A DNA stretch of 63,635 nucleotides, the filler included, from Folioceros fuciformis (Eukaryota): NCBI GenBank assembly GCA_049999805.1. It is 15 parts of 15 records of this genome, joined end to end, with 100 filler letters (N's around TTAATTAATTAA, not from the genome) between each part and the next. Parts side by side here need not be neighbours in the genome. Positions count along the whole stretch, not along the records: positions 45,888 to 53,807 come from JBNGIO010002204.1; 14 more parts are not named here. One strand, written 5' to 3'. Position 1 is the stretch's first letter. Each line of letters begins with the position of its first letter. Below the pieces are notes generated by a model. It saw nothing but the letters and a program-made list of their open reading frames with translations. It had not been told where the DNA came from and ran no database searches. The position numbers and the translations under genes are program-made. Shown one piece after another: positions 12,738 through 62,503 of the stretch.

Positions 12738-14244
12738 TGTCAGTACTGAAAGGGTCGATAGAGGAGCATGGTGAAGCAGAGGAGAGAAGAAGAGAGGAGG
12801 AGAGGAGAAAGAGAGGTCTCACAGTGTCTCTCATAGCTCTATTGCAAAGGGAGCTCAAGAGGGTATTTATACCCTCTAGAAAAGCTCCCAAGGAAGATTC
12901 ACAAGAAGCTCACAGGAAGCTTCACAGGAAGCTATGCAGGAAGCTTCCTAAAGATTAGCTTAAGCTAATCTAAACTAATGATACTTAATTAGACACTAAT
13001 CTTAGACAAATCACAGTAATCTAATTAAACTAATCACATTAGTCTAATTAGACTAATCACATTAGTCTAATAAGACTAATCACATTAGTCTAATAAGACT
13101 AATCACATTAGTCTAATAAGACTAATCACATTAGTCTAATAAGACTAATCACATTAGTCTAAGCACATTGGGCTTTAATAACCCTACAACCACCCGCTTA
13201 AAGGCCAATTTACCTTCATAGGGGAGTGGTCTACCTCATGCCCATGAGTGTCCGAGCTTGTGCGAATTGCTCCGAAGAGAGCCCCTTGGTAAGAACATCT
13301 GCAAGGTTCTGACTAGTGTGAACTTTGACAAGTTGTACCCTCTTGTCTTCCAACACCTCTCGAATGAAGTGATACTTCACTTCCACATGTTTGGTCTTCG
13401 CATGAAACACTGGATTCTTTGCCAATTGAATAGCACTCTAGCTATCACAATGCAACACTGGCAGCTCAACCTTGATCCCTAAATCGCCCACTAGACGAGC
13501 AAGTCACATGGCTTCCTTGCATGCCTTAGTTGCTGCAACATACTCGGCCTCTGTAGTAGATAGTGTTATGCATGATTGCAAATGAGATCGCCATGAGATT
13601 GCCCCTCCTGTGCACATGAAGACGTAAGTAACCTGATGTGGACCTCCTTTTGTCCATATCCCCTACATAATCAGCATCCGTAAATCCCACGACAGATGCA
13701 TCTTCACTACCAAAACATAAGCACAAAGCTTTTGTACCATTTAAGTACCTCATAACTCCTTTCACTACCTCCCAATGCTTTCTGCCAGGGTTTGACATAA
13801 ACCTACTAACCACTCCCACTGAAAAGGCAATGTCAGGACGTGTAGCAATCATTGCATACATCAAACTCCCTACAGCTGATGAGTATGGAACCTTCTGCAT
13901 TTCAGCTTTGTCCTCCGCAGAGCTTAGGCAATCCTTGGTCAACAATTTCACATATGGAGGCAACGGAGTACTTAATACCTTTCCCTTCTCCATATTGAAA
14001 CGTTGAAGCACCTTGTTAATGTATTCAGTCTGAGACAAGTACAGCAAACGCTTCTGTCTATCTCGACGAACACGCATGCCAAGCATATGGCTTGCCTCTC
14101 CCAAGTTTGTCATGTGAAAGCGACTATTCAACTTTGACTTCACCGTTGAAATCTCATCACTGTTAGTCCCAGCAATTAGCATATCATGCACATAGAGGAC
14201 CAGAATGAGCAAGCTTCCATCCTTAGCTTGCTTCGTATAGAGGC
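12738..14244 (-). mobile_element. Ty1/Copia 3' part: RT/RNase H, PPT and 3' LTR (12738-13187)
   Basis: LVLYVHDMLI (YVDD variant), YSSAVGSLMYAMIATRPDIAF, KNPVFHAKTKHVEVKYHFIRE..NLADVLTK. A purine tract precedes the LTR start TGTAGGG at 13187 on the minus strand. Confidence 0.92.
13005..13165. repeat. Tandem array of a 23-bp palindromic unit inside the LTR
   Basis: AGACTAAT-CAC-ATTAGTCT(AATA) at period 23 (13051, 13074, 13097, 13120, 13143), plus degenerate units upstream. Confidence 0.9.
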
Positions 14245-14366
14245 NNNNNNNNNNNNNNNNNNNNNNNNNNNNNNNNNNNNNNNNNNNNTTAATTAATTAA
14301 NNNNNNNNNNNNNNNNNNNNNNNNNNNNNNNNNNNNNNNNNNNNACTAACACCACATGAGTTTAGC

Positions 14367-15634
14367 TCATATAGAGCTCGATAACTCAACATTCCATCCT
14401 TTAGCTGCTGCTAATGCTCTGATTGTCCTTACAGTTGTCATCTTGGCTACTGCACTAAAGGTTTCCTCATAATCAAGACCATACTGTTGTGCATATCCCT
14501 TTGCAACCAACCTGGCCTTGTAACGCTCCAGAGTTCCATCTGACTTGAACTTCAGCTTGTACACCCACTTAGAACCAATAGGAACCTTGCCATCAGGCAA
14601 TTGAACCAAATCCCACGTTTCGTTCTCAACTAATGCTGAGTATTTTTCATCCATGGCTTGACACCACTTATCATCTGTCACTGCCTCAGCAAACTTGGTT
14701 GGCTCCTTACAAGCTATGACCCTTGTCATATACGCATAATGTTGCGCATTGTAGCTTCTATAGGTGTACCTGTCAATGGGTTTCGTAACCCTCTCAGATC
14801 TCCTTGGTCTTGGTTCATTTTGAACCTGCCTTGCATATTGTTGCTCCTTAGCACCTGGCGTTTCCACAGACGGAATGCCAAACTCATTGTCAATGCTCTC
14901 ACTACTTGAGGATTCATATCCCTCATTTCCAGTTTTGCTGCTTTCTACTCTCCCCCTCACTGACATATCCAGGTTAGTGGTCTTCGATTTACCATTCCGC
15001 AGTCTTCTAGACCATGGATTCACCGTTGGTGATCCACCATTGGTCACATCCTCACTCTTTGCTGGAGTACTCTTAACAGTACTCTCCCCTGTGGGTTTGT
15101 CATAGGGTAGTGCAACTGAGTTGCTATACCAGGAGGCTAACTCATCAAATACCACATCCCTACTTATCAGGATCTCATGTGTGGATGGCACATAACACTT
15201 ATATGCCTTCCTATTTCGTGCATACCCCAGAAAAACACTCTTCACTGCTTTAGGATCCAACTTCCTACGCTTCTCATCAAGTACATGCACATATGCAATG
15301 CACCCAAACACTTTCAAGTGCCTAATATCCGGCTTATAGCCATACAGTCTCTCTCAATTGGTGTAGCATTATGAATTCCTGCCGTAGGAGTTCGATTCAG
15401 TACATACACTGCTATCATCACTGCTTCTGCCCAATAATCGTTAGGGAAGCACTTCTCATTCAGCATTGCCCTTGCTGTTTCCATGACTACCCTGTTCTTC
15501 TTCTCTGCAACACCATTCTGCTGTGGTGTGGATCTGCAAGTCAGCTGTCTTCGTATACCATGATCTGCAAGATACCTGTCAAACTCATTTGAGACATATT
15601 CTCCCCCTCCATCTGATCTTAGACAAGAGATGGA
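14367..15634 (-). mobile_element. Ty1/Copia integrase core to RT start (decayed)
   Basis: RSDGGGEY..TPQQNGVAE, KVFGCIAYVHV..RRKLDPKA, WVYKLK..RYKARLVAKGY..DYEETF. Confidence 0.92.
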
Positions 15635-17000: not shown

Positions 17001-18568
17001 CTGCATTTAGCTCTAGAATGGATGCATCCAGAGTGAACATCCGTCCATTCCTACTACCTTAGCAATCAATTTGCGCCCTCTGTCATATTCTTCAATAAAG
17101 CATCCATCTTTATTGAATCGAACCTGCAGATTTTGTTCAGCCATTTGTCCAACAGACAACTGGTTCTTCGTAATGGTTGGAACATGCAACACATCTTGCA
17201 GACTCTTCTGCTGACCATTCGGCATCCTAAGAGGTGTAGGGTTCTTAAAGCCCAATGTGCTTAGACTAACGTGTTTAGTCTAAGAGTAGTGTCTAATTAA
17301 TTACCATTAGTTTAAATTAGCTTAAGCTAATCTGAAGGAAGCTTCTTGTGCAGCTTCTCGTGGGCTTCTTGTGAAGTTTCCTAGGGAGCTCTTCTAAAGG
17401 GTATAAATACCCTCTTGAGCTCCCTTGTATGTGTGACTCTATTGTGAGAGTGTAACCTCTCTTTCTCCTCTCCTCCTTGCCTCCTCCTCTCCTCTCCTTC
17501 ACCATGTAGCTCCTAGAGCGTTCCTTCAAGAAGAACAATTCCTCTATGCTTTATGTCATGTTGTGTGTCATCTCCTGTACACACATGACCATGGGGACCT
17601 GCATCCATCTTGTTAAACCACTCGCCATGCGGAGTCATGTGGTTTGATGCTTCTGAATCAATGTACCATCTCTCATCATTCTGCCCATCCTGTTCAGAGA
17701 GATGTTGCATGGCAAACAACCTATCCTGGTCATTTCCAGCATTACTAGAGGAGGCATAGTTCTCATGCTGCCTTCCTTTTCCTTTCATGTCAGCTTGCTG
17801 CTTATAGCAGTCCTTAGCAATATGACCAACCTTACCACAGTAGTAACACTCCTTGTCTCTATTGGAATGGTCATGAGATTGAAAAGAACCATCTCTTCCT
17901 CTTGTGGCTCTACCTGCGCCTCTAAAACTTCCAGATTCTCTCTGGCCTTGCGCATTTCCTCCACGCCAATTGTCTTGCTGATTTTGCGTGTTCCGAGCAT
18001 CACCCCGTCCTCGGAATGAACCACGATCTCTGTGGCCTCTCCCACGCTGGTTAGAAAACAAAACAGTGTCTCTCCCTTGAGATATACCTGAACCTGTGTT
18101 CAGACCAAGCTTAACTTCCTCATGCAGCAAAAAAGCAACCAATTCATCCCAACTTGGGAACTCAAGTCTCACAGAGATTGATGTGTCAAAGGACTTGTAC
18201 TCCTTGCCAAGTCCATTCAGAGTAACTGCAACCATGTCATCTTCCGTCACACTTGCACTGATTGTAGCAAGCTGATCAGCTATGGTCTTCACCTCTGTTG
18301 TATACACGAGTATGGATCTGCTACCTCGTGACAAGTTGTTGAACTGTTGCTTCAACTGAATTTTCCTAGCATGTGTGACATTTCCATAGTTCCTCATGAG
18401 TATGTCCCATGCATCCTTCGGAGACTCACATCCCGTGATCTATATGACCATAGCATCTGAAATGCTTCAGGAGAGCCAGTGCAACACTTTACATGCTCTC
18501 TCAGTCCAATGCTTGTGAGCAGTCTTTTGCTCCTGTGATGGAGTACGATCCATCTCTGGTTCACTCTC
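17001..18568 (-). mobile_element. Ty1/Copia gag-protease region, interrupted by a solo LTR
   Basis: UBN2-type gag, zinc knuckle CYYCGKVGHIAKDC, protease WYIDSEASNHMT and VLHVP..NQLSV. Close paralogue at 33591-34696. Confidence 0.92.
17235..17528 (+). mobile_element. Solo LTR (Copia family A) inside Copia pol
   Basis: TGTAGGG..CTTCA flanked by AGAGG/AGAAG (TSD with one mismatch). Removing it restores HRGIV-PLRMPNG. Confidence 0.85.
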
Positions 18569-19006
18569 CGATCAGTACCAAGATGAGGGACCAACCCCAT
18601 GCATTACGTTTTTTTTTATTCTTTTTTCTAAAAAGATTTTTTTTTTTTTGATAGGCATATTCACAGCCAAGACACTATGCTACCTAGACATACTAGGGCA
18701 AGCAATCTTCTAGGCATAATAAACATAGGCCATCAAAGCCGTGGCTCTGATACCAAGTTAGAATTGCTAACGCGGAAGCAGATGCATTGAAAATGATCTA
18801 TTAGCAAATTAATTAGGTGGATACAAAGGTAGGCCTTAAGCAGCAGTTTACGAAGGGGTGTGCCCTTTGATTAACCTGCCAGTTAACTAACTACACGTAT
18901 AACTATGTCTAGTTAGGCTAACCAACGTAATACAAAACCACGTGGTCTGCCTTATATTCCAACTGGCTCATTAGGTAAATTATGAGAAATCTAGTCATTT
19001 AGAACA
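18569..19006 (-). mobile_element. 5' LTR with tRNA-Met PBS of a further nested element
   Basis: Minus-strand TGTTCTA.. start at 19006. PBS TGGTATCAGAGCC at ~18755-18743. Confidence 0.65.
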
Positions 19007-20155
19007 TGTTTTTCATTAAAGATAACTGATCTGGCATGAAACATCTTACATTTGATTGGCTCATATACTTATAGCCGTGAATTCCAGAAGTATACCCTAT
19101 GAATGTGCAAGGTGTTGTCTTAGTCTCCAACTTTCTGCGTAATTGTTGTGGTATATGGGCATATGCAAGACTGCCGAAGATACACAAATGTGATACATCT
19201 GGTTTCCTATTATACCAGGATTGAAAGGGGGTCATCTTAGGAAGAGCTGATGTAGGAAGCAAGTTCTGTAAACAGGCTATTGTTGCCACGGCTTCAGCCC
19301 AAAACTTTAGAGGTAATTTTGCTTGATGAAGCATGCTTAAGGCTGATTCTTGCACAGATCTGTGCTTGCGTTCGGCGCGACCATTCATCTCTAAATTATA
19401 GGGAATTGTTAATTGTCTTGTAATGCTCTTATGTCTACAGAAATCTTCAAACTAATTGGAGAGGTTTTCGCCACCATTATCGGAGCATAATGATTTCAAC
19501 ATCTTGCCTGTATGGTGCTCTGCATAAGATAAGTAGTCCTTAAAAGTTTGAGAGACATCACTCTTTGCCTTCAATACATATGGGATTGTAAAATGTGAGT
19601 AGTCATTTATGTATACTATAAAGTATCTGCCACCTCTTAGGGAAGGAATTGACATGGGGCCACATACGTCAGAGTGCACAAGGGACAAAAGCTCAGTCAT
19701 GGGCTTATCCTTGCCAGTGCCAAAGTGTTGTTTCCTTTGTTTTCCATGGATGCATGCTTCACAAAAATTTTCTGGAATGTGCTTAATTGATTCCATACCA
19801 CTAACCAACTGTTCCTTCACTATCTTGGTCATTATTGCAGATCCAGGATGCCCTAAATGGCAGTGCTATGTGAGAACTGAAGATGTATTAGGCTTTTGAG
19901 AGGAAACTGCATAATTATGAGCTGCAAACGAACTCTCATTCTCGCATAACAATGGAGATATATTCAATTTATATAGGTCATTATGTGCAAGTCCTATAGC
20001 GACAGGAATTTGCATAATTGATTTCCTGTAAATATAACATGCTTCATCTTCTAGCATAGTTCTGTAGAGCTTAGTTCTTCCTAAGCACATGCTACTGACC
20101 AAATTTTTGGCTGTAGCAGGAACATGCAGGGTGTTTATTAAATCGACAATGCAGC
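19007..20155 (-). mobile_element. Ty1/Copia GAG-pre-integrase and integrase (decayed)
   Basis: FCEACIHGKQ, LVHSDVCGPM, SDNGGE, NGRAERKHR, FWAEAV. Confidence 0.92.
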
Positions 20156-32399: not shown

Positions 32400-35300
32400 T
32401 GAACTCAAGGACTTGCACCTAAATGTGGAGGATCCTTGGAGAACTGATCCGGCTCTGCGGCACCCGGGCTCTCTTGCGTTTAGTCAGTCAAACCAACAGA
32501 GCAGCCCCATCCTGAGGGGACTGGATCGTATCTATATCCAATCCTCTCTGTTTGCCCGTGTGCAAACCTTTGCCATCATTCCTAGTACCGCCTTATCGGA
32601 TCATGCCCCGGTCTTGCTGAGCTTTTGCTGTTCGAAATCAGGTAACACCCCTACTGGCTCTGCAGGGAAGTTCTTCAGGATGAATACCTCTTTGCTCAAA
32701 CGTCCAGGGGTGTAAGAAGACATCAAGGATATCTTCACCAATTCTGCATTAATACCAAATACAATCCGCTGGACAAGTTTCTCAAAGCGTACAGGGAATC
32801 ATCTCAGTACCTCCGCAACCTAGGAACCAAGATCAAGTAGGAGGAAAGACGCGAGGAACAAGAGATTAGGTAGGTACTTGGTTCCTTGCAAAGACGAGCT
32901 AAAACTCAATAGCTCTCCCCAAAAGAATTCCAACAACTACAAGACGCTCTCTTCGCGGTGGATTCGTTTGAGGAACAAAAAGCTCAAGGCTAGTACAAAC
33001 GTGCCAAGGTGAAGTGGGCAGTGGAAGATGATTTGCCGAGACGTTCCTTCTTCAACATGCTGCACCAAAACCGTAGGAAAACCACCATCCCCCCTCTCCC
33101 GGATGCACAGGGCAACAGAATCTATGATCCGCGACTATTAAGACAGTTCATTGCTGGACACTTCAAGGATTTTTTCTCCTCCCTAGGCTCCCCCGATGGC
33201 TGGGAGGATAGGTGGAGTTGCTCCTATGGGAGCTACATGAGGAAAATCTCTAAAGTCCAAAGTCATGAGCTGGAAAGCCCTCTCAGCGTGGAAGAGCTTC
33301 ACCGGGCTCTGTTGGACATGCCGCTAGGTAAATCCCAAGGACCAAACGGAATTCCCAAGGAATTCTTTGTATAGGGCTGCAGATTCATGGAAAGCCCACT
33401 GCAAGCTGCGGTAGGGGACATCTAGGAAAGGAGCTCCATGGGACCGTCTGTAAACAAAAGTCTCATCACCTTGTTACCCAAGGTGCAGGCTTCATAGTCT
33501 ATTCTCAACTGGCGTCCAATCAATCTTCTTAACACACTGTACAAATTGCTTGCTAAGGTCCTCTCTAATCGCATCTCACATCTACTTCATGCATCCATCT
33601 TGTTAAACCACTTGCCATGTGGAGTCATGTGGTTAGATGCTCCTGAATCAATGTACCATCTCTCATCATTTTGCCCATCCTGTTCAGAGAGATGTTGCAT
33701 GGCAAACAACCTATCCTGGTCATTTCCAACATTACTAGAGGAGGCATAGTTCCCATGCTACCTTCCTTTTCCTCTCATGTCTGCTTGTTGCTTATAGCAG
33801 TCCTTAGCAATATGACCAACCTTTCCACAGTAATAACACTCTTTGTCTCTATTGGAATGGTCATGAGATAAAAAAGAACCATCTCTTCCTCTTGTGGCTC
33901 TACCTTCGCCTCTAAAACTTCCAAATCCTCTTTGGCCTTGCGCATTTCCTCCACGCCAATTGTCTTGCTGATTCTGCGTGTTCCGAGCATCACCCCGTCC
34001 TTGGAATGAACCACGACCTCTGTGGCCTCTCCCACGCTGGTTAGAAAACAAAATAGTGTCTCTCCCTTGAGACATATCTGAACCTGTGTTCAGACCAAGC
34101 TTAACTTCCTCATGCAGCAACAAAGCAACCAATTCATCCCAACTTGGGGACTCAGCTCTCACAGAGATTGATGTGTCAAAGAACTTGTATTCCTTGCCAA
34201 GTCCGCTCAGAGTAACTGCAACCATGTCATCTTCCGTCACACTTGCACCGATTGTAGCAAGCTGATTAGCTATGGTCTTCACCTCTGTTGTATACACGAG
34301 TATGGATCTACTACCTCGTGACAAGTTGTTGAACTGCTGCTTCAACTGGATTTTCCTAGCATGTGTGACATTCCCATAGTTCCTCATGAGTATGTCCCAT
34401 GCATCCTTCGGAGACTCACATCCCATGATCTATATGACCATAGCATTTGAAATACTTAAGGAGAGCCAGTGTAACACTTTACATGCTCTCGCAGTCCAAT
34501 GCTTGTGATCAATCTTTTTCTCCTGTGATGGAGTACGATCCATCTTCGCTTCACTCTCATCACCTGTGCAGCAGTCCCAATAGCCTCTACCTACCAAGAA
34601 GTTTTTCATCCTGAACTTCCACAAAGCAAAATTCTTGTTATCCAACTTCTCTCCCACAACCTGAGAGATATTGTCTGATCCCTGCACGTTAGCCATGATT
34701 CAAGCTCCTTTACGCACCAACACTTGTCCTACACCTTAGTTCAGTTGCCTTCTCTTGCTTGCTGTGCCACCAAGTCCCTTGTGGACAGATTGTCAAAACA
34801 CTTTCATGCGTCTTCCAACAGATGTTTTTGACAATCTTGAGTACAACTCCCTGCACTGCTATAGAGCTCCAGCACTCCACAAGCCTCAATCAAATCTCAA
34901 CAATTCCTAAATGTGCAGTTGACTCTTTGCTAAGCAAAAACAGCCTTTGCTCAAGCTTTCAAAAAACAAAAAAAACAGAACATTGTTTGCCAAGTTCAGG
35001 CCTTCCTCCTTGCAAATCCTGGGCCTGCTGTGGCTTCCACGGCCTGGTTGCCTCCAGTAGTTGCTGCTCTTCTTGAGTCTCTCTCCCTCTTGCGCCTCCC
35101 GGGCGCTCTTGCGCCTGTTGCAGCTTCCTACGCGCCTACGTCGCTACGCCTCTCAATGGCTTGCGTTGCGAGCCACCTTCACGCTCATGGCCATAGCCTC
35201 AAACCCCCACTATAGCTACCATGGCCGCCGGCGCTCTCTCTGGCTCTGATACCATGTTGAAATAGCACCACTAGCTTAGATGGACTCCACAGTACATTCC

Positions 35301-37100
35301 TTATGGTGCACAGGATGCTACATATATAGCCTTCAGGCGGGGCAACCCTCGATAAGGTAGCCTTAGTCTCGAGGGTGCAATATCCTGGTATATCCTGATA
35401 ACACTTAGGTGGTAGATAACTACGAGTTCAATATGGGATAATCTACACTATCCTAAGTGTTTTATGCTCTTAATAACAATTCAGTTAGAGCTTGATTTCT
35501 AACACATGATTGGATTGAGCCAGAACAGCAGGGATTTATCAAGAAACGGTGCATACTTGACAAACTTCTTCTAGTCAGGGAGGCGAAGTAGTGGATCCGA
35601 CACTCCAAGATGCCAGCGGTCATTATATCCCTCGACTTTCAAAAGGCGTAGACTCTATTGAATGGAACTTTCTCTGGAAAACCCTCAAGCACTTCGGGTT
35701 CGGGGAGAATTTCTGTCACTGGGTAGTTATTCTGACCGAAGATGCTGGTGCCAAAGTGGCGGTGAATGGTGAAATCTTGGAGCGCTTCTCCATCACCCGG
35801 TCTGTGAGGCAAGGATGCCCTTTGGCCCCAGCTCTTTTCTCCATCCTTACTGATTTACTCATATGGAGAATCAACTCGCACCCTGAAGTAGAAGGTATCA
35901 GAGATCCACTAGGCAAAGAATGCAGGATCTCTTGTTTGGCTGACGACACCATGCTGTTTTCCAAGGCTTATGAAAGATCGTTGCAAGCCATGATGCAGGT
36001 CGTTGAGGAGTTTGGCGTATTATCGGGGTGTAAAGTTAACTGGGCCAAAACGAAGATGATATGCCTAAACACAGGTGACAAAATCCCCATCCTGATGATC
36101 CATATCGAGCGCATTTGTGGAAACTAGTTCCACAAATACCTTGGTATCCCTCTACATGAGGGGGAGGAGGATGGGGAAATCGGGAAGTATATTGTTTCAA
36201 GGTTCATCAAGAAAGCTCAAGCCCTCCAAATATTACAGCTCTCCACAGTGGCCAGGGTAGTTGCCATAAACTACATGCTGACAGCAATGCTGTGGTATTT
36301 CCTATTCGTTTGGTCCCCGTCTCGAGCGGACATTGCCAGGCTGAAACAAACCATCAGAAAATTCTTATGGAGTAGGCCGGTGGAGGGAGAAGGCAACTGC
36401 CAAAAAGTAGCTCGAGATCTCCTGACTCAACCCAAACTTTAGGGTGGCCTAGTCTTAGTCGACCCGGTCCTCAAGACCTAGGCTCTTCATGCGTAGTGGG
36501 TGCTCAAAGCTATGGGTCCTCTGGACTTCCCATGGAAGAACTTCTTCATTGCTAGACTCCATAGTGCCCAACTTAGCAAGACTAGTCAACAGGGCATAGT
36601 GCATGTTCTTGCGGACCGCGTCCGGTTCGCTCAAGGGGAAGGGTCACCGCTATGGCACTCCATTTGGAGTATTTTCCACAAGGCTCTGGCTATGGCCTGC
36701 TGGGTTCCCCCGGATAAACGTTCAGAAGCTCTTGCATTACCTCTGTAGGGTCTACCCCACTGTGGTCACCAGATCAAGCACGTAGGATCAGAAGGTCCCA
36801 ACACTTTTGGAATGTCGGACTAAGGGGCATAGTGTTCCTGCCGGACATTTGGGACTGGTAATAGAAGTCATTAAAGTCTCCCTTCCAACTCCAAATGCAG
36901 TTCGGAATCTCTGCAACTTGTGCAAGAGTCATCTTAGACACTATACGTAGGGATTTGCTGGCTAGTCTAAGAGAAGTGATATCTCAAGCGGCCCCCAGAC
37001 AAGCGGGGGTCTTTGTTATGGTGGAAGCACCCACTAGACTTCCCAGATCCCCGCTCAATAGTATGTCAGTTTTTCAGCTGGGGCCTCCGGGTCTAGAGTT
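32400..37100 (+). mobile_element. L1-type LINE ORF2 (endonuclease C-terminus and RT), decayed and split by a Copia insertion
   Basis: LDRIYI..SDHAPV..FRMNTSLL, KSQGPNGIPKEFF, NWRPINLLNTLYKLLAKVL, EQQGFI, LDFQKA, VRQGCPLAPALF, LADDT. Confidence 0.9.
33591..35504 (-). mobile_element. Truncated Ty1/Copia (5' LTR 35255-35504, PBS, gag, start of protease) inserted into the LINE RT
   Basis: TGTT..AACA LTR, PBS TGGTATCAGAGC at 35254-35243, gag KLDNKNFALWKFRMKNFL..CYYCGKVGHIAKDC. The LINE frame HLLH-DWIEPEQ is restored on removal. Confidence 0.92.
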
Positions 37101-45787: not shown

Positions 45788-45887
45788 NNNNNNNNNNNNN
45801 NNNNNNNNNNNNNNNNNNNNNNNNNNNNNNNTTAATTAATTAANNNNNNNNNNNNNNNNNNNNNNNNNNNNNNNNNNNNNNNNNNNN

Positions 45888-46450
45888 GGAGAAAAAGTGC
45901 AATATTGAGTATGTATAACATTGAGGAAGGAAAACAAGTGCAATATTGAGTATGTATAACATTGAGGAAGGAGAAAAAGTGCAATATTGAGTATGTATAA
46001 CATTGAGGAAGGAAAAAAAAGTGCAATATTGAGTATGTATAACATTGAGGAAGGAGAAAAAGTGCAATATTGAGTATGTATGACATCAAGAAAAAAGGGA
46101 AGAAAAAGGAGGAACATGTGACATAAAGATAAAAGAGGATTGAGGAAAGAGAGAATGTGCAACATAGAGGAAGAAGAGGATTGAGGAGAGAGAGAATGTG
46201 CAACATCAAGGCAAAAGAGGATTGAGGAAAGAGAGAATATGCAACATCAAGGCATAAGAGGATTGAAAAAAGAGAGAATGTGCTACATAGAGAGAGGAAG
46301 AGGAAGTACGACATTCAGGAAGGAGAAGAAATGTGATATCTAGGAAGGAGAGGAAATGTGACATCAAGGAAGGAGAGGAAGTTTGGCATCGAGCAAGGAG
46401 AGAAAGTGCAACATTGAATGGCAAGGAAGAGCAACATTGACGAAGAAGAA
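45888..46450. repeat. Minisatellite: five ~41-bp units decaying into related A/G-rich units
   Basis: GTGCAATATTGAGTATGTATAACATTGAGGAAGG.. at 45897, 45938, 45979, 46021 and 46062. Confidence 0.9.
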
Positions 46451-47879
46451 TTCGTACCCACAATGAGGAAGTGGCCACTTCGCACTGCTAACTACAATTT
46501 GAAGGTGTTGACCTTGACGAAAGTCTTTTTGATATAAACACAAGTTTATATATACCCTAAACACAAGTTAAAATTATATACAACTTTAATTTGACCAAGA
46601 TTCATTATCAAGAAAGTAATCAGACTATGGAGAAGAGAAGTTAGAAGTGATGAGACTATGGAGAAGGGGAATAAGAATCCAAAAGTCAAACTAATACATA
46701 GCTTTGATTTCAACAAGATTCTTGATGAAGAAAGTGATGAGACTATGAAGGATAAGGCTGAGAAGGATCAGGAAGCAAGATCAGGAAGCTTCTAACCAAC
46801 CTCCATGTGTGTTCTCGAGTGGGGAAACTAGCTCCCATTTGGATGGGGAACAATAGCAAGGCGAGATCCGCCAAATGACTTGTAGGCGCAATCCTGAAGG
46901 AGGCCACGAAATCCTATGCTTGGATACTAAACCACCGAATGAAGAGGGGTTGACACCAATTATGCGAGGAGAAAGTCCAAGGATAAACCAAGAAGAGTGG
47001 GATCCTAGGTGTTTGAAGCTCAAGGAAGGGGAATTGGAGGCTCACTACCAGGGGGCCACACTAACCTCTGCAGATATATGGGATGCATCCTGACATGGAA
47101 TCTGCTCACACGCAGATTTCTGGATGTTTTTGTTGGAAGAACTTGATTGACGGGCTGCCTATGCCAGGCAGCTTGGAGTCGGGTAAATCACACCAGGTGC
47201 TGCAGCGAGATATAAAGAATATCAATCCTTACAACTCTTGAGCCCAAATATGGCTCGAACAACAAAAGCAATTGAGTTTCTAAGATAGTAGCAAGCAGTC
47301 GACTTCGACGACTAGCGGTCTCCATCTCCATCTCCAGGGTTTAGCGTGGCAGCCATGGCTGATGTCAGTGATTTTGGTGCGGGCTTGCCTCTTTGAGTCA
47401 TGCTCATTTGGTTGGGCTCACACTCTCGATGTGGGCCCACAGGTTTCAGCAGCAGCTGCAAGCATGCCCTAATCCACGCTCTCTAGTTTTTGGTGTTTTA
47501 CTAATTACCGTTTAGTGTTTGCTAATTGCCAATATTTAAATGGTATTATCCTAAACTAATCCTTATTTAAAGGATAATTGTTTCACTCTGCTTACTCAAC
47601 CTTAAGCTCACCTTTGGTATCGTGACAGCGGTCGTGTGAGGCACACAGCAGACGGTCAAGCTAGTGATAAGTGTGGCAACCTCTACCCAGCAGCATCAAG
47701 CTGAATAGCACAGCACATACCAAAGAAAGTGGTAAGAAGGTTAGCATCACGCAAGGTGGTGAGCACTGGGAAATGTGGAACCCCCATCCCTGCCCCCCCC
47801 AGTTGATGAGAATAGCTGGCAAAACGAAAGGGCTCGTCCACGCCGGGTACCCATGCCCTCAACTAGCTGTAGAAACAAC

Positions 47880-48014
47880 ACACTGGGGGCAATACCATAA
47901 CTGTTCAGGTACCTTAGTCAGCGGCGGATCCAAGCAAAACAAATGGAATCCGCCATTGCATCCATCACAGAGCAGCATGAGCTCTGCATCATCTACCTTG
48001 CGACACACCGGGCA
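47880..48014 (-). pseudogene. PHD finger (C4HC3) at the integrase C-terminus
   Basis: CPVC..LMLLCDGCNGGFHLFCLDPPLTKVPEQLWYCPQC, in the same frame as the integrase. Confidence 0.93.
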
Positions 48015-51000
48015 AGGGTAATCCTCCGGAGGGACCCAATTGGCTGTGAAAATGGCGGGGTCCAAGTTGGGTAGGTGGTAGGGGGCACAATTCTTGGTGT
48101 GATCTGTAATAGTCTTGCCATCTGCCCCCTGTAGCAGCAGCACGCCGTTAGGTCTCACTTCCCTCATTCCCAGCACATGGCGGCTAGTGCTGGTGTCTAG
48201 TGTATCACCAGTCTATCGTTGCAAATACACAAAGTCCACAAATTGGAACTTCTTGAGTTTGGGCCTGAAACTTCCGCTCCTGGTATAGGCATACCTAAGA
48301 GTGTCCCTGTGTTGTGCAATGTGCAAATTTGCCATAGCCATGGGCATGACCTGCCTAAACATCGTAGCCCTCTCCCCAATGACTTTGGCCCATATAGCCG
48401 GACTGTCTAAGTCCGCCACCTACTGCAGTTGCTTGGCGATGGAGCTAGGTGGCATTGGCTCATGGCCAAAAAGTAGGAAATACGGTGAGAAGTGTGCCAA
48501 AGAGGCATGCTTACTCATCTGGTATCCTATTGTGATGTAGGGCAAGGCGAGATCCCACTCGATCTTAGGCATCTATAGACAGAGCTTCCTCAAGCCCTTC
48601 TTGAGTGTCTAGACCATTTACTCTGCAAGACCATCATCCTGAGGATGGTCTATGCTTGTCCTGCAATGATCTATCAACGCTGCATCCAATAGATCTTGGA
48701 ATTCACCCCTAAATTCTGACCCCCGGTCAGTTAAACATTCACCACATCTGCCGAAACGGTTGAGTACATTCTGCAAGAATGCTTGAGAGGTGCTCCTGGA
48801 CGTCTTGTCAGACAGTGCAACAGCCTCCACCCACTTGGAGAAATGCTCCATCGTGACAAGCACGTACACATTCCCACGTGTAGTGCGTGGCAGCTCCCTA
48901 ATCAGGTCACATGACCATCTGAAAAAGAGGCCCATGATAGGCAAAGGATGTAGCTCCGGGTGCCAGATGGTGAAGGAAGTCTTCACCCTGTCGCATGGCT
49001 CGCAGCAGGCAACCCACTCACGCACCTGACCATGCATCCCATGCCAATAAAAATGAGGGGCTAGTAGGTTGTAAGTGCGTTTGACGCCAAAATGACCCAT
49101 ATCATTGTGCACCTTACTAATTAGTGCAGCTCTGTCAGCTAGTGGCGGCACCAAGCGTTCAACTCCATGTGCCAGCTTCCTAATAACATAACCATCACGC
49201 CAGTAATATGTGGCAGCACGATGCTTGACCTGTTCAGCTGTGGTTGGTGGGAACGTCGCATCCAGCTGTCCTGTTTGCAGATACTGCAGTGTGTAAGGAT
49301 CCTCCCAAATGTCCTTAGCCAGTCGGGTTGGTACAGCTGTGCTGCCACAGTCGACACACACCATAGCCACCAGAGCAGCGACCTTGAATGGTTCATAAGG
49401 CTCATAATCCTGCCTTGCCTTGGTGATGTCTTGACAGCTGCTGTCTGGATTCCTAGAGAGAGTGGTTGCATTCTGATGCTTTAGAGCTGGTCTGTGAACC
49501 ACCTGGAAATCATAATCCTGAAGAATCATGGCCCATCGAGCTAGCTTGCTGTTGAGCTTTGTGTTGGCCATGAGCCACTTGAGGGGCAGGTGGTCCGTCA
49601 CCAGCGTATTCGCTTGTCCATAGAGATAAGGCCAGAAGTGGTAAACTGCCCAAACAGCGGCGAGGCATTCACCTTCATAACTGCTGTAATTGGCCTGCGT
49701 CTTGTTGTTGCTACCGGATGCATAGGCTATCACTCTCTCATTCCCTTCTTCATCATGCTGAGCCAAAACTGCCCCAAGGCCCAAGCTGCTCTAGTCTGTG
49801 TGTAGCACAAATGGCTGCTTGAAATCAGGTCTGGCCATCACAGGTGCAGAGGTCAACCTGGATTTCAGGGTATCAAACGCCTCCTGCATAGCCTCAGTCC
49901 AAGTCCATACCACGTCCTTCTTGAGTAGGTTATTGAGAGGCTTGGCAATATGGCTGAAGTTTTGGATATATATCCGATAATTATTGCAAAGGCCAAGGAA
50001 TGCTCGCAAGGCAGAGACTTTAGTGGGCTTCTTGACCTGCAGAATGGCCTGCACTTTAGTTGAGTGTGGCATTACGCTGTTGGGAACCACCCTGTGCCCT
50101 AAATATGCAACTGTATCCATACCAAATTCACATTTGGCTGGATGGCACTTGAGCTAAGCCTTCCTTAGGTGCTGGAAAAGGTCCTCCAAGTGTTCCAAAT
50201 GTGACTCAAAGTCCACACTGTGCACAAGGACATCATCTATGTAGCACAATAGGTTGGCTGACCCGGCCAAAACTGTCCATAACCCTCTGGAAGGTGACTT
50301 GAGCATTCTTGAAACCGAACGGCATCACAAGCCACTCCCACAGTTGCTGTGATCCGTGAAAGGCTGTCTTTTTTATGTCCTCTAGTGCCACTGGCACTTG
50401 GTTGAACCTTTGCCTTAGATCCAGTATGGAGAAGTAGACAGATCTACCGATGCTATTAAAGATCTCCTTCGGTGTAGGCATAGGGTACCTGTCCTGGGCT
50501 GTCACGGCATTGATAGGGCGATAATCGCCACACATTCTCTCCTCCGTCCATAAGGCTTGGCTATCCTTCTTGGGTGGCATGACAGTCGCAGCAGCGTAAT
50601 AAAAAATGGAAGGTCTGATTAGCCCTGCCTCACATAATTCCTTGCACCTTGCATCCACCATTTCTCACTCAAATTGACTCAATCGATACCTTCTGCGATA
50701 TATTGGCTTTGGGCTTGTGAGGTTGATCCTGAAGGTTGTGACGTTGTAGCGTTTCAACTCCTTCATGGAGAACGCGAAGCAATCACTGTACTTGAGAATC
50801 AATGCCCGAATCTGCCTCTGCTATTCATCAGTGAGCTATGGTCCCATGTGCCAGTTGAACGTTTCAGTAGTGAGTGGCACCTTGGTTGATGGCTCTTGCC
50901 TCACATCCACCTTGAAGGTCGATGCAGAAAAAACAAAGTGGTGCCAAGCAGCATACTCCCCCCCCCCCCCCTTGCATCAACCTTGAAAGGTAGGCAAGGA

Positions 51001-51089
51001 TAGCCAGGGAAAGGTAGGTGCACTGCATCTGCTGGACAAGCCATGGCTACAAGGCTTGCAAGGGTGCCTCTGGTTAGCAGTTGCAAAGC

Positions 51090-52045
51090 CAAGCATAAAC
51101 TCACAAGCCAAGTGATGTCGTGCAAGTCCATAGCTCGACCGATAGCAGCACAGCACTGAGAGACTATAACCTGCGGTGCTGCCGTGGCATGTGCTAGAAA
51201 GCCCATGATCTGCTCACGCTCCTCAATGTGGGGCTCTTCCCATTTCTTTGTGGTGGTGTTGTATAGCAATCTAGCGCCGTTGCTGCGATAGGCAAAGGAG
51301 CCAGGAAAGCTCACTAGGGTAGGCAATGTTTTGCGAGGTTGACCAGGTGTGTTGGTTGGATGCCAAGGTGGTCGCTCACTAGCAACCACATGCCTGGGTT
51401 CATGATTTGCATCCAACACATCCTGCAGCTGCAAGGTGGGATCCCGCTTCGTGTTGTGAAGCACAAGTGCCAAGAGTGAATTAGGGATGAGGTTGGTCCA
51501 GTAGTTGCGTAGACAGTGCGCATAACTACCCACCTGGACAACATCCAAAAGAAAGGGAGCACCAAGATGGTGCTCCACGACTGCCATGTCCTATCACACG
51601 GAGTCCCTCTTGTCAAGCTGAGCTGGGGTGTTCTCGAGGAGATAGCCACAATGTGGATTTTCCTGTTGCACCCATGCCAAGATCTTGTGCAGGTCTCGGA
51701 ACAACCCAGTGCGATGGTCCTCCAACCCCGCTCCTGCGCCTGCTTGGGAGAACCCTTGGAATTCCCAGCCAGCTATTAGCACGTCTACGGATCCCAGGGC
51801 CTGGATGTGGCCTTGTTGGATGTACTTGATGTCTTGAGGTAGTGCTGAGAATGTGGCAGCTAAGACTGCCTCCGATAGCTATGTGGGGAACCTGCTGCGG
51901 AGCTCCTGTAAGCGATGAGCAGCTATCTACCGTGCTTCCCCGCTGCTGTCACAATATACATAATGCCTGATAGGGAGGCCTGCCTTAAGCAAAGCCTCTA
52001 GGCCAGTACAAATGCCGCCAAACAGCTCCACGAGAAAAAGGCCGG
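51090..52045 (-). pseudogene. DNMT3-like C5-cytosine DNA methyltransferase domain within the retrotransposon pol
   Basis: Motifs in canonical order: I LVELFGGICTGLEAL; II YVYCD; III QDI; IV VDVLIAGWEFQGFSQAG; GLF; VI YLLENT; VIII AHCLRNYWTNL; IX EEREQIMGF; X IGRAMD. Same frame as the protease, with in-frame stops. Confidence 0.9.
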
Positions 52046-53198
52046 CGGCTGGGATAGGCCAATCAATCACTTGAGACTTGACATCATGCTCTTGCATGGG
52101 ATCCTTGAGTCCTCGCTGCAATAGATCTTGCACTTGCTAGACATGCTCGTAAGCATCTTCTAGCACACCCTCAACCTATGTGGGATGGTCAGCGGCCTTG
52201 ATCAGATTTGTCAATCTACATGTGGCTGTGGTGTTGCTGGAGTAGCTGTCACAATGCTCCTCCTCTTGCTTTGACTCTAGGTGGTCCGCATCCTGCAAAT
52301 GGTTGCTGGCCAAGGGTGTTCCCTCACTGACTAGGACTGTTGTACATGCTTGTCGCTCTACAAGTGTAGCTGTGTCAGCCTCTGAGATGTCATGCAACCA
52401 AAGGGGTAAGTGTGCCACCCTTCTCCCTCCTTGCTTCTAGTCTGGACGATAATACGCCTACTTTGTCCAGTTGTCCACACTTAAACCTGGTGGAAACAGA
52501 AATTCTTGCCCTAACAGCACGTCATAGTTTGTGGCTGTTGTCACTAGGCATGGAAGACTCAGCGTCATGGCATCTGGAGTGCCTGGCTTGAGTGTAATAT
52601 CCACAGGCTTAACAGTCACTTCGGCGACTGGCTCAATGGCTCCTGACGTTGTCCTTATGCTCCAAGGAGAGCTCTTGAGAGCTTAACCATCAAGGTTGAG
52701 CCTAGTAGCTAATGTCTTGCCAATGATCACTGGTTGAGCACCAGTGTCGAGCAATACAACCCTTGGGGCATACCCATTCACCGTAATATGCCCCGCATCA
52801 TTGTCAAAAAGTGCATTGCCGACTCTGACTGCTAGGCAGTTGGTGGGTTGGATCCTAAGAGAGCTAATGGGTTGAGCAGGCTGCCTTCCAACTGCTGCAA
52901 CTTCAAACATGCTTCCAGCTACTGTCTCCTTGGAGCAAGGTGAGATGCTAGCAGGTACCACCCACCCATCTGGAGCTAGTGGCCAGCATGATGCTCCTGA
53001 AGATAATACAGCTACTTGCGCTGGTTGCAATTCCTTGGGCAAATGCTCATGTCCTAGCCCCATGTCTTGCAAGGAAAATAGAGAAATGCCAATCCATTTC
53101 TCAGATAATTGTTCCACAGTGAAGGCCCTGGGCATCAAGTAGACTGGCCCACTGGTTGACACCTGTGGTTGCGGTGGAGGCTTGTTTATTGTCTGTGG

Positions 53199-53807
53199 TG
53201 ATAAAATGGCTTACTATTAGGGCACTGTTCACTAGAGCACCTAGGACTTAATAATTAATTTAATCCTTAGGGCTCTAGGTAGTTTCTTTTAGTAGTTATT
53301 TAATTGGTTAGTTGTTACAACCACTTAGAGGTTACAACAACCTTGCCTACATGAAGGCATGTACTTTTTATTATAAATCAATGCAACACACATTGCTTGA
53401 GCTTGTGTATGATTCTTATCATGGTATCAGAGCACACTTGCTCTTTGTTTTCTTGTGCATCTTCATGCATCTAAATAGCTTATTTAGGAGACACTTTCTA
53501 CTCTAGCATTTGCCTAGATGGATTGTGTTTATCCTAGAATTGTTATCTCTGCATGCATTTCTTTTATGCTAACATTTCTCTTCTAACAATGCTTTTATGC
53601 ACTAATTCTTTGTCCTTCTTCCATGGATTTGTGTTCCCTTAGAAGAAGAAGGCATATAGTTAAGAAGAGAGATAGTCCTGCAAGACAACAAGAACAAATT
53701 AGGAGTCCAACACATAAAAGCAATAGAAGACAACAAGCTATAGAGGGAGAGATAGAAGAAACCTCCTCTTGTATAGCAAATTTCATTGCATCTATTTTAA
53801 TTTCTAA
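53199..53807 (+). mobile_element. 5' LTR (53199-53421) and tRNA-Met PBS of an element inserted into the Gypsy 5' region
   Basis: TGATAA..TTATCA inverted termini, then TGGTATCAGAGC at 53422. Confidence 0.85.
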
Positions 53808-53907
53808 NNNNNNNNNNNNNNNNNNNNNNNNNNNNNNNNNNNNNNNNNNNNTTAATTAATTAANNNNNNNNNNNNNNNNNNNNNNNNNNNNNNNNNNNNN
53901 NNNNNNN

Positions 53908-57847: not shown

Positions 57848-58730
57848 TGCAAACCCTAAAATTTGGAATATTCGGCCTAGATCAAGTTGGGAGAATATTA
57901 TGTGAAGATCCAACCCTAAAAAGAGAATATTGTGTGAAAATCATCCAACCCTAGGGAACAGGAAACCTGTATCACAAATTTACAGAGTGTGAACATGAAA
58001 ACGAAGAGTTGTGGCGTTTTTCTATGTCTCTTTGGTGTGGAGTCCGGTTTGGTCGGTTTACCAAAACGGACAGGAAAAATATGGGCATCAAAAGGGAATA
58101 TTTGGGTAGATACGAAAGCATTAAAAAATGTATAGTGAGAGAGTGTCCCCTTTGGTATGTCATATTCGTCATCCCGTTTAGGATTTGCGTGGAGAGGTGG
58201 AACGGATTGGTATTTGGTGTATATACTATTAGGGTGTACTTCGGGGGTGAACAACATAGAAAGACCCTTTCCAAGGATGAGTACACGTATATTCTTCTCC
58301 TCCACACAGCTTGTGGCACTCCGGCAACATACTGTAGTGTCGGTTGTGTTGTCGAATAGATATCGGTATTCAAGTAGCATTTTTGCCTCCCTGTCGCAAG
58401 CTTCGAGGTGAAGGAGTATGGCATACCAAAGGGGACACGCTCTCACTATACTTTTTTTAAGGGTTTCCCATGGGGTATCTACCTGAATATTCCCTTTTGA
58501 TGCTTATATTTTTCCAACCAAAACGGACTCCGCACCAAAGGGGACATAGAAAAAACACCACAACTCTTCGTTTTCATGTTCACACTCTATAAATTTGTCA
58601 TACAGGTTTCCTGTTCCCTAGGGTTGGATCTTCACAGAATATTCTCTTTTTAGGGTTGGATCTTCACAAAATATTCGCTTTTTAGGGTTGGATCCCAAAA
58701 TATTCTTGGGCAGAATATGTAGAGTTTGCA
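57848..58730. mobile_element. Foldback / long-TIR non-autonomous DNA element
   Basis: Arms ~57848-58170 and ~58408-58730 are reverse complements (e.g. CCCTAGGGAACAGGAAACCTGTAT vs ATACAGGTTTCCTGTTCCCTAGGG). Termini are TGCAAAC../..GTTTGCA. Confidence 0.8.
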
Positions 58731-60274: not shown

Positions 60275-60767
60275 TGTCTCATGGCGTCTGGTAAGGTTGT
60301 GGGGAGGAGATATCCAAGAGGGGAGTGTGTTCCCTTCTTTCTTTTCTTTGGGGTTAGTCTAGTGACTCTTGCCAGGTAGGAGGAGTTAGCAGGGAAGTGT
60401 CGAAGGTAGTGGTGTCATTGTTAGTTGCTGGTGTTGGTGCTGGAGTGAGAGAGTGAGTGAAGCGAGTGAGGTAAGTCGCAGATCTAAGAGGTTAGGGTCG
60501 TTGTAGTGACTGGAGTGAGTTTGTGGGCACCAAGAGAGGTGCAGCTGACTGCCGGACAGCGAGGCCTGTCCTACGCCTGATCGGAGCTGGAGGGGAGGCC
60601 TCGAATCCATCATCGAGTCGATCAAGTCCGACCCTCCATCCACAGCAGCAAGGAACCCCATCGCTCCTTCGTGGGAACGAAACCCAATGTCTCAACGACA
60701 GTGGGATAAGCGTGGCCACTAAAGGTGGAACCCGTTGGCAATCAGTGCTCGGGGTTTTGCCTCCACA
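60275..60767 (-). mobile_element. LTR family B, copy 5 (partial), inserted in a Copia RT
   Basis: TGTGGAGGC terminus at 60767 abuts SKWVFKLK. Confidence 0.85.
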
Positions 60768-62167: not shown

Positions 62168-62503
62168 TGTGGAGGCAAAACCCCGGGCACTGATTGCCGA
62201 CGGATTCCACCTTTAGTGGCCACACTTATCCCACTGTCGTTGAGACATTGGGTTTCGTTCCCACGAAGGAGCGATGGGGTTCCTTGCTGCTGTGGATGGA
62301 GGGTCGGACTTGATCGACTCGATGACGGATTCGAGGGCTCCCCTCCAGCTCCGATCAGGCGTAGGACAGGCCTCGCTGTCCGGCGGTCAGCTGCACGTCT
62401 TTCGGTGCCCACAAACTCACTCCAGTCACTACAACGACTCTAACCTCTCAGATCTGCGTCTTCCTTCACTCACTTCACTCACTCTCTCGCTCCAGCACCA
62501 ACA
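62168..62503 (+). mobile_element. LTR family B, copy 6 (partial)
   Basis: TGTGGAGGCAAAACC start at 62168, running to the contig edge. Confidence 0.85.

Follow-up and report, generated by a model that had tools for sequence, protein, structure and literature searches.

The window analysed here, the whole stretch of 63,635 nucleotides (nt), comes from the assembly of Folioceros fuciformis (GCA_049999805.1) and is made up of 15 contigs, each 1.0-10.3 kb long, with one of 14 identical spacers (N44-TTAATTAATTAA-N44) between each contig and the next. Because the spacers are artificial, the order of the contigs across them carries no information about neighbourhood. One contig holds a truncated and decayed Ty3/Gypsy long terminal repeat (LTR) retrotransposon whose polyprotein (pol) includes, besides the usual enzymes, a C5 cytosine DNA methyltransferase (DNMT) domain and, as its last domain, a PHD finger. 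Both lie within this contig (Table 1) and are therefore physically linked; the rest of the window is unlinked to either. In a translation of the minus strand with X at stops, Pfam gives the order protease (PR), DNMT, reverse transcriptase (RT), RNase H (RH), integrase (IN) and PHD. The order PR-RT-RH-IN and an integrase with H2C2 and rve modules are those of Ty3/Gypsy, with the DNMT inserted between PR and RT. Pfam detects no chromodomain at the integrase C-terminus, where the PHD finger stands instead, so that the element is not a chromovirus.

The PHD finger is encoded in a stop-free frame of 117 residues (minus strand, 47862-48212) that ends in ...PPEDYPCPVCRKVDDAELMLLCDGCNGGFHLFCLDPPLTKVPEQLWYCPQCVVSTAS, followed by TGA. 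The SH3-like strands of the integrase occupy residues 15-38 of this frame, and the finger is the domain that comes directly after this SH3-like end. The TGA is probably the native end of pol, judging from the same-layout relatives P0003 and P0054, which end at most 6 residues from their PHD match, and from related loci, where the 3' LTR starts about 240 nt past the PHD. Gag and the 5' LTR lie beyond the contig end, the element being cut inside or before gag, and a repeat search inside the window gave no LTR pair because the contig stops before the 5' LTR. The edges of the 3' LTR follow from contigs of public sequencing runs that join 47790/47788 back to 47092 (a jump back of 699), and from read depth, which summed over these runs stays at 7-13 across the flank (46152-46943) but climbs to 90-420 within the element (140-420 past the LTR boundary), or about 10-40 times the flank depth. 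The low-copy flank past the LTR carries 41-nt tandem repeats at 45890-46270 (repeat family D2), and its positions 46016-46203 are matched with 0-1 differences, at a depth of 21-66, by short contigs of a run from another study that is only guessed to be RNA.

The copy in the window is dead. Pol is broken by 15 in-frame stops, 12 of them TAG, six falling in the RNase H-integrase-PHD frame and five in the DNMT domain, and by at least one frameshift, in the RT near 50270-50300, where copies are polymorphic for an indel at 50273. The catalytic position of DNMT motif IV reads Phe (codon 51759-51761) in place of the Cys found in 28 of 28 relatives and in the other copies aligned at this codon (place 51760), and the first Arg of motif VIII has become Cys. 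The element contig has a CpG observed/expected ratio of 0.37, the lowest among the larger contigs of the window (one 1.4-kb contig has 0.33), and a TpG/CpA excess of 1.35-1.44; methylated repeats usually decay in this way, with low CpG and excess TpG/CpA. Run X1 yielded 819 aligned pieces (114 at 99% identity or more, 255 at 95-99%, 264 at 90-95% and 186 below 90%), and the family is therefore multi-copy in that organism. Two other studies under the same species label contain the flank with 0-1 differences and element pieces that are 80-95% alike, which argues against a one-off contaminant.

Table 1. Features of the contig that carries the element (positions in the window)
Feature	Position	Strand	Evidence or remark
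Element contig	45888..53807		7.9 kb; artificial spacers on either side (45788-45887 and 53808-53907)
Aspartyl protease of pol	52497..52787	-	PF13975 E 1.2e-8, PF13650 E 1.9e-7; residues 142-238 of the read-through translation P0001
DNMT3-like C5 cytosine methyltransferase domain	51111..52136	-	PF00145 22.4 bits against a cut-off of 22; inactivated here
Reverse transcriptase	50157..50820	-	RVT_1 E 6.7e-13 on 50236-50664; two frames
YIDD box of RT	50157-50324	-	In another frame than the RVT_1 match
RNase H	49512..49901	-	PF17917 E 3.9e-35 (residues 110-214), PF17919 (residues 85-181 of P0002)
Integrase H2C2 zinc-binding domain	48978-49145	-	PF17921 E 1.6e-16
Integrase rve catalytic core	48651-48920	-	PF00665 E 2.9e-12
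Integrase C-terminal region with SH3-like beta domain at its end	48054..48572	-	Homologous in all 33 nearest polyproteins
C4HC3 PHD finger, final domain of pol	47880..48014	-	PF00628 E 8.3e-14
TGA stop	47859..47861	-	Six codons past the last zinc ligand
Purine run GGGGGGGGCAGGGA, candidate polypurine tract	47787..47800	-	Abuts the LTR start
3' LTR, TG...CA	47091..47786	-	About 696 nt; from read joints and depth
Low-copy flank past the LTR	45888..47090		Depth 7-13; 963-nt contig with 0 differences

Classes of the PHD finger and the methyltransferase domain

The PHD match (PF00628) spans residues 67-111 of the frame and scores 51.8 bits, above the gathering score of 24. None of the eight zinc ligands is missing (C67, C70, C82, C85, H90, C93, C108 and C111), and they are invariant across an alignment of 26 family members. 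The cage position, two residues before the zinc-binding histidine, is occupied by Gly88 rather than tryptophan, and glycine is found there in at least 90% of the 26 members as well as in 62 of 65 related metagenome loci. The closest sequence matches in the PDB are PHD1 of Drosophila Lid (KDM5; 4.5e-16) and BAZ2B (8.8e-15). Further matches include KDM5D PHD1, KMT2D, CHD4, WSTF, MLL3, BAZ2A and the PHD1 fingers of KDM5A and KDM5B, and also UHRF1/2, ORC1b, PHF21A/BHC80, KAT6A and AIRE. TAF3 and SPP1, which read histone H3 trimethylated at lysine 4 (H3K4me3), match at about 2e-6 only, and there is no DNMT3 or ATRX ADD domain among the best 60 of the 79 PDB matches.

An AlphaFold2 model of the frame, built on the 26-row family alignment, comprises the SH3-like integrase end, a low-confidence linker and the PHD finger at a pLDDT (predicted local distance difference test) of 72-90. 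Foldseek places the modelled finger on the BAZ2A PHD in complex with unmodified H3 (4q6f, 5t8r), with a root-mean-square deviation (rmsd) of 1.1 Å over 48-51 columns, a TM (template modelling) score of 0.85 and 45-48% identity. BAZ2B, UHRF1, BHC80, DPF3, MOZ and ATXR5 come next, and none of the 50 Foldseek matches listed is an ING, BPTF or TAF3 entry. By sequence and predicted fold the finger groups with the unmodified-H3 class represented by KDM5-PHD1, BAZ2A/B, UHRF1 and BHC80. An earlier note on this DNA had described a complete C4HC3 finger in the place of the chromoviral chromodomain, with EDYPC before the first cysteine, an LLCD strand and GFH at the cage, and had assigned it to the KDM5-PHD1/BAZ2 type that lacks the cage tryptophan. 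The motifs read as it stated, the Pfam score, the complete ligand set and the position after the integrase C-terminal domain bear out the finger itself, and PDB matches and fold agree on the type.

The residues by which this class contacts H3 can be followed into the family. Acidic residues (Asp/Glu) ahead of strand 1, the 'acidic wall', mark PHD fingers that read unmodified, helical H3 and are nearly exclusive with a cage tryptophan; in BAZ2A and BAZ2B they are E1689 and E1944 (PMC5415848). KDM5B PHD1 contacts H3 unmethylated at lysine 4 (H3K4me0) through D308, Y310, E321, the L324-L326 strand, D328 and W351, where D328 forms a salt bridge with R2, W351 belongs to the A1 pocket and D308 holds the amine of K4, and binding drops 4-fold to more than 15-fold once K4 is methylated (PMC4225485). 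PDB sequence alignments set E63/D64, Y65, D74-D75-A76-E77, M79-L81, D83 and W106 of the frame at or beside these contact places. E77 aligns with the second Glu of ...NEELLLL in BAZ2B, and equating that Glu with E1944 is our own reading. Across related loci the acidic-wall place holds Asp in 53 of 67, the Asp after Cys3 (D83) is kept in 56 of 67 and the Trp two before Cys6 (W106) in 52 of 59, with mostly Asn or stops in the loci that lack the last two; Asp at -3 from Cys1 (D64), retained in 58 of 65, is the sole conserved acid before Cys1. The contact residues are the majority state across these 67 decayed loci, with D to N, C to Y, and W or Q to stop as the prevailing changes. A P-C-H-L motif that precedes the finger by about 20 residues is shared by at least 90% of the 26 relatives, and the window copy reads P-Y-H-L there (48072-48083, residues 44-47); the motif may close the integrase C-terminal module or supply an extra ligand.

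The methyltransferase is best judged from intact members. The window domain finds DNMT3C/3A as its best PDB matches, weakly (E 0.005), and the intact DNMT of the relative P0010 matches DNMT3B/3C/3A at 4e-9 to 2e-8, HaeIII at 3e-5 and plant DRM at 5e-5 to 0.01; the PF00145 match is likewise far stronger in intact relatives than in the window copy. Motifs I, IV (Cys), VI (ENV), VIII (RxR) and IX/X are unrearranged and conserved in 28 relatives. By these sequence comparisons the DNMT of the family is DNMT3-type, in agreement with the assignment of KnitGypsy-Dnmt3 (PMC5890265).

Joint occurrence of the two domains in one clade

A protein search with the IN-PHD part gave 45 matches, the best 33 of which are Gypsy polyproteins of 35-50% identity whose domains were mapped by phmmer. 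The PHD finger follows the integrase in 32 of these 33, P0010 ending 22 residues past its integrase, and a DNMT is present in 29; among the DNMT-less relatives a profile search recovered a DNMT remnant in P0008. On an integrase tree of 44 rows the window element, the 33 relatives and P0054 form one clade with a Shimodaira-Hasegawa-like approximate likelihood ratio test (SH-aLRT) support of 99. Approached from the other side, with the 229-residue DNMT frame of the window as query, the search returned 600 representatives (protein clusters at 50% identity) at E values of 0.001 or below and 339 at 1e-10 or below. Among the 149 new ones listed, 44 continue for 70 residues or more beyond a complete integrase, and 42 of the 44 possess a PHD finger. 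A word-index search from the DNMT found 38 polyproteins, 31 with a precomputed PHD, a count that does not consider possible truncation of the other 7.

DNA-level relatives tell the same tale. A metagenome scan confirmed 442 stretches, and the best 80 loci were analysed: all share the layout of the window, and where they are long enough to tell, a DNMT is present in 37 of 41 and a PHD in 65 of 66. Every one of the 80 is decayed, the longest frame over the integrase measuring 437 codons. Direct LTR pairs (176-446 nt, mostly about 270-310, 78-96% identity) were found in 14 of 16 loci examined, and the 3' LTR starts roughly 230-300 nt past the PHD. The flanks and LTR of the window have no DNA similarity to the 80 loci, and only coding parts align, at 63-68%; the loci are therefore related families and not the window's own. 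In this monophyletic clade the co-occurrence of PHD and DNMT is near-constant, and its scoring, which the earlier note had proposed, finds the two together far beyond this copy by each count. Since copies of one family are not independent events, the counts speak for retention and not for repeated co-gain.

Two layouts exist. The order PR-DNMT-RT-RH-IN-PHD-stop, with RT, RNase H and integrase (about 1000 residues) between DNMT and PHD, is that of the window, P0010, P0054/P0005, P0032 and all 80 loci. Most database relatives, among them proteins of Tetrabaena, Hariotina, Monoraphidium and Haematococcus, the hosts named among the relatives, have RT-RH-DNMT-IN-PHD and a tail, which is also the layout of most algal relatives. 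A single clade (P0003-P0035, P0054 and L001-L080) hence has two places for its DNMT, the PR/RT junction or the RNase H/IN junction, which could stem from a single capture followed by a move or from two separate captures. Ten members of the cluster P0083, all 2487 residues long and in one 90% cluster, lie on ten contigs of 9.9-14.1 kb with the RH-DNMT-IN-PHD layout and look like a young family, possibly still active.

The tails of the algal layout add a further module. Of 77 tails that are 90 residues or longer, 53 (P0059, P0016, P0024, P0114 and others) contain, some 40 residues after the PHD, a stretch of about 60 residues homologous to a Tudor-like stretch in P0154 (residues 842-921) and P0158 (residues 973-1057). 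In a model of P0059 it is predicted as a five-stranded barrel with a pLDDT of 90-97. Foldseek with the whole P0059 model returns PHF1, MTF2 and UHRF1 (Tudor and PHD) at high rmsd, plus one PWWP, and on these matches the barrel is named Tudor/PWWP-like and no further. From sequence and model it appears to be a tandem or alternative reader on the integrase beside a DNMT3-like domain.

The other contigs of the window, unlinked to the element, hold features of their own. An intronless frame of 845 residues of the PPR-DYW type (2440-4974, minus strand) has its best named matches among lycophyte, fern and liverwort proteins at 40-46% identity, which suggests a land-plant assembly. Fragments resembling Ty1/Copia gag, integrase and RT and the RT of long interspersed nuclear elements (LINEs), judged by eye from translations, lie at 13529-15353, 17516-19865 and 33761-34429 on the minus strand and at 35561-36124 on the plus strand, likewise with low CpG observed/expected ratios (0.39-0.47). 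One 2.2-kb contig contains an inverted repeat of 336 nt with 95% identity (60432-60767 and 62168-62503), and a second inverted repeat has 82% identity (57893-58167 and 58414-58676).

Possible functions of the finger

H3 binding, integration targeting and any coupling of reader and writer are what we infer from these observations. On balance we think it probable that the PHD finger is the C-terminal reader of a Ty3/Gypsy integrase, tethering it to H3K4me0 chromatin, and that the DNMT is a separate module of pol. The finger would bind the unmodified N-terminus of H3 (H3K4me0 with unmodified R2) by beta-strand pairing on its M-L-L strand and through Asp83, the acidic patch D74/D75/E77 and Trp106. 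Once bound, it would tether the integrase-cDNA complex to nucleosomes without H3K4 methylation, thereby playing in this clade the part of the chromodomain in chromoviruses and biasing insertions away from H3K4me3 promoters. The tethering step is suggested by the class of the finger together with its position after the integrase C-terminal domain, the site of the chromodomain. The DNMT of intact copies probably methylates the new DNA of the element itself, as has been proposed for KnitGypsy-Dnmt3.

Several observations weigh against this reading. The place of KDM5B D308 (E63, four before Cys1) is not conserved, being Leu or Phe in 62 of 65 loci, and the acidic patch is PDDEA in most (algal) relatives, one place off the VDDAE of the window. 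Within the PHD class other N-termini can be bound, as illustrated in the Foldseek match list by UHRF1 with PAF15 and with Stella. In P0154 and P0158 a weak Tudor-like match (PF21743, below the cut-off) takes the place of the PHD. The profile search found no DNMT in P0003, P0007 and P0011, which keep the finger; the nesting of P0007 and P0011 within the clade points to loss of the DNMT, and P0003 is not counted as a loss because the protein may be cut at its start under the window layout. Moreover, decay of the window copy and of each of the 80 related loci limits what these can tell, at the DNA level, about selection on the PHD.

The finger might instead mainly serve the methyltransferase, targeting or switching on the DNMT3-like domain at H3K4me0 as a transposon-borne equivalent of ADD-DNMT3. 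We hold this to be unlikely, even though the co-occurrence is very tight, the DNMT is DNMT3-like and the Tudor-like barrel in 53 of the 77 tails recalls the paired readers of DNMT3. The majority layout also puts the DNMT directly upstream of IN-PHD, so that a single mature DNMT-IN-PHD protein is conceivable. In the layout of the window, however, normal processing of pol would separate the two domains across the intervening 1000 residues or so, and they most likely end up in different mature proteins. The finger is, furthermore, matched best by KDM5 and BAZ2 and not by an ADD, it is kept in P0007 and P0011 despite the missing DNMT, and its position at the integrase end fits known integrase tethers. 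A reader-writer unit is accordingly possible for the layout RH-DNMT-IN-PHD and less likely for that of the window. Of the analogy with ADD-DNMT3 drawn in the earlier note, the joint retention of reader and writer stands; the likeness in build does not, given a finger that is not an ADD and a DNMT placed, in the window layout, after the protease and ahead of RT, at a distance from IN-PHD.

A PHD finger that does not read H3K4me0 at all, recognising another H3 state, a non-histone N-terminus or DNA, or acting as a structural zinc module of the integrase, seems to us rather improbable. Members of the class do have other partners (UHRF1 binds PAF15 and Stella, DPF fingers bind acylated H3K14, and ATXR5 is a further case), the variable place of D308 fits such a role, and H3 binding is predicted here from sequence and model comparison. 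Against this, the residues that contact A1, R2 and K4 of H3 in solved complexes are kept family-wide, namely those of the strand and the acidic patch together with the Asp next to Cys3 and the Trp ahead of Cys6; at least 90% of members have glycine at the cage position, and the same site is filled by other chromatin readers, namely the Tudor-like stretch in P0154/P0158 and the chromodomain in chromoviruses. That the pairing is an artefact, whether from a chimera made in assembly, from contamination or from decayed DNA that reads as a zinc finger by chance, is very hard to believe: the window does consist of short contigs joined together, stops abound in the copy and the host assignment depends on other contigs, but PHD and DNMT share a single contig and a single continuous pol, their order recurs in 80 independent metagenome loci with LTRs and in the intact predicted proteins P0010 and P0054, and the flank and related copies reappear in runs of two other studies under the same species label.

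Comparison with known systems

DNMT-carrying retrotransposons are known from few lineages. The closest precedent is KnitGypsy-Dnmt3 of Klebsormidium nitens, a Gypsy LTR retrotransposon with a DNMT3-type domain in pol (de Mendoza et al. 2018, PMC5890265). In both families the DNMT3-type domain is intronless and non-rearranged, with conserved key catalytic residues (PMC5890265). The main text of that paper makes no mention of a PHD finger, which its figure 4c or supplements may show, and describes the repeats as DIRS-like (PMC5890265), whereas ordinary direct LTRs, about 300 nt long, flank the related loci studied here. The hosts differ too, being Chlorophyceae and a land-plant assembly here as opposed to Klebsormidium, and no Klebsormidium sequence was among the relatives found from the IN-PHD and DNMT sides. 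A recent preprint, in the text available, lists Gypsy-DNMT3 for streptophytes only, and describes EpiLTRs/DAM-LTRs, LTR retrotransposons that stack methyltransferases and a histone reader (bioRxiv 10.64898/2026.05.21.726589). These combine Dam, a DNMT4-related DNMT and a chromodomain, with no PHD finger mentioned in that text (bioRxiv 10.64898/2026.05.21.726589). The elements found here carry the range of Gypsy-DNMT3 past Klebsormidium into Chlorophyceae and, it appears, into a land plant.

PHD fingers in transposons are not new in themselves and have been published for REM1/Gypsy-7a_cRei, CR1 elements and Penelope-like elements. REM1/Gypsy-7a_cRei of Chlamydomonas is, like the window element, a green-lineage Gypsy with a PHD finger in pol, but the published description gives the order RH-PHD-IN without a C5 DNMT (PMC9940879), where the window element has IN-PHD and a DNMT. 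P0036 and P0037, which have a REM1-like layout, are sister to the window clade on the integrase tree; they carry the PHD between RNase H and IN together with a Dam-like N6-adenine methyltransferase (PF05869), and so recall both the order of REM1 and the DAM-LTRs. Our literature search, which for PMC5890265 covered the main text, turned up no account of a PHD at the integrase end that is paired with a DNMT, of an H3K4me0-type class for such a finger, or of such elements in Chlorophyceae; figure 4c and the supplements of PMC5890265 may bear on the point. It also found none that joins Selgy with a PHD, so that this precedent, invoked by the earlier note, is unverified.

In chromoviruses, which also belong to Gypsy, the integrase ends in a chromodomain (Gao et al. 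2008, cited in PMC6673714), and the likeness lies in a histone reader that follows the integrase C-terminal domain as the presumed tether to a chromatin state. The reader is of another class, an unmodified-H3 PHD here and a chromodomain reading H3K9 methylation there, and the predicted target chromatin therefore differs. The finger is 39-48% identical to KDM5 PHD1 and BAZ2A/B and is predicted to have their fold (rmsd 1.1 Å); like them it lacks a cage tryptophan and shows an acidic patch ahead of strand 1, an Asp next to Cys3 and a Trp preceding Cys6. It is unlike them in sitting on a transposon integrase rather than in a demethylase or remodeller, and in having no fixed equivalent of KDM5B D308.

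The clade is large (600 protein clusters at 50% identity have its DNMT), the DNMT is nearly always accompanied by the reader on the integrase, and this reader belongs to a class that avoids H3K4 methylation. These findings provide a testable model in which the choice of insertion site and self-methylation would be tuned to the chromatin state that guides host DNMT3, along with intact relatives (P0054, P0010 and the ten P0083 copies of identical length). A bolder and decidedly tentative proposal is that a large green-lineage Gypsy clade, ranging from Chlorophyceae to a land plant, has convergently rebuilt the logic of animal DNMT3, uniting a DNMT3-like writer, an H3K4me0-type PHD and, in the main algal layout, a Tudor/PWWP-like reader, and that it inserts into H3K4-unmethylated chromatin and methylates itself or its surroundings as one coupled act. 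If this were true, the transposon would act as a mobile module for de novo methylation, with the capacity to shape the methylomes of its hosts. The ADD domain of animal DNMT3 and DNMT3L is a composite of a GATA-like finger and a PHD, fused to the methyltransferase and controlling it allosterically. Overall, the element resembles ADD-DNMT3 in associating an H3K4me0-type reader with a DNMT3-type catalytic domain, and differs from it in that its reader is a lone canonical PHD finger carried on the integrase, in the window layout about 1000 residues away from the DNMT.

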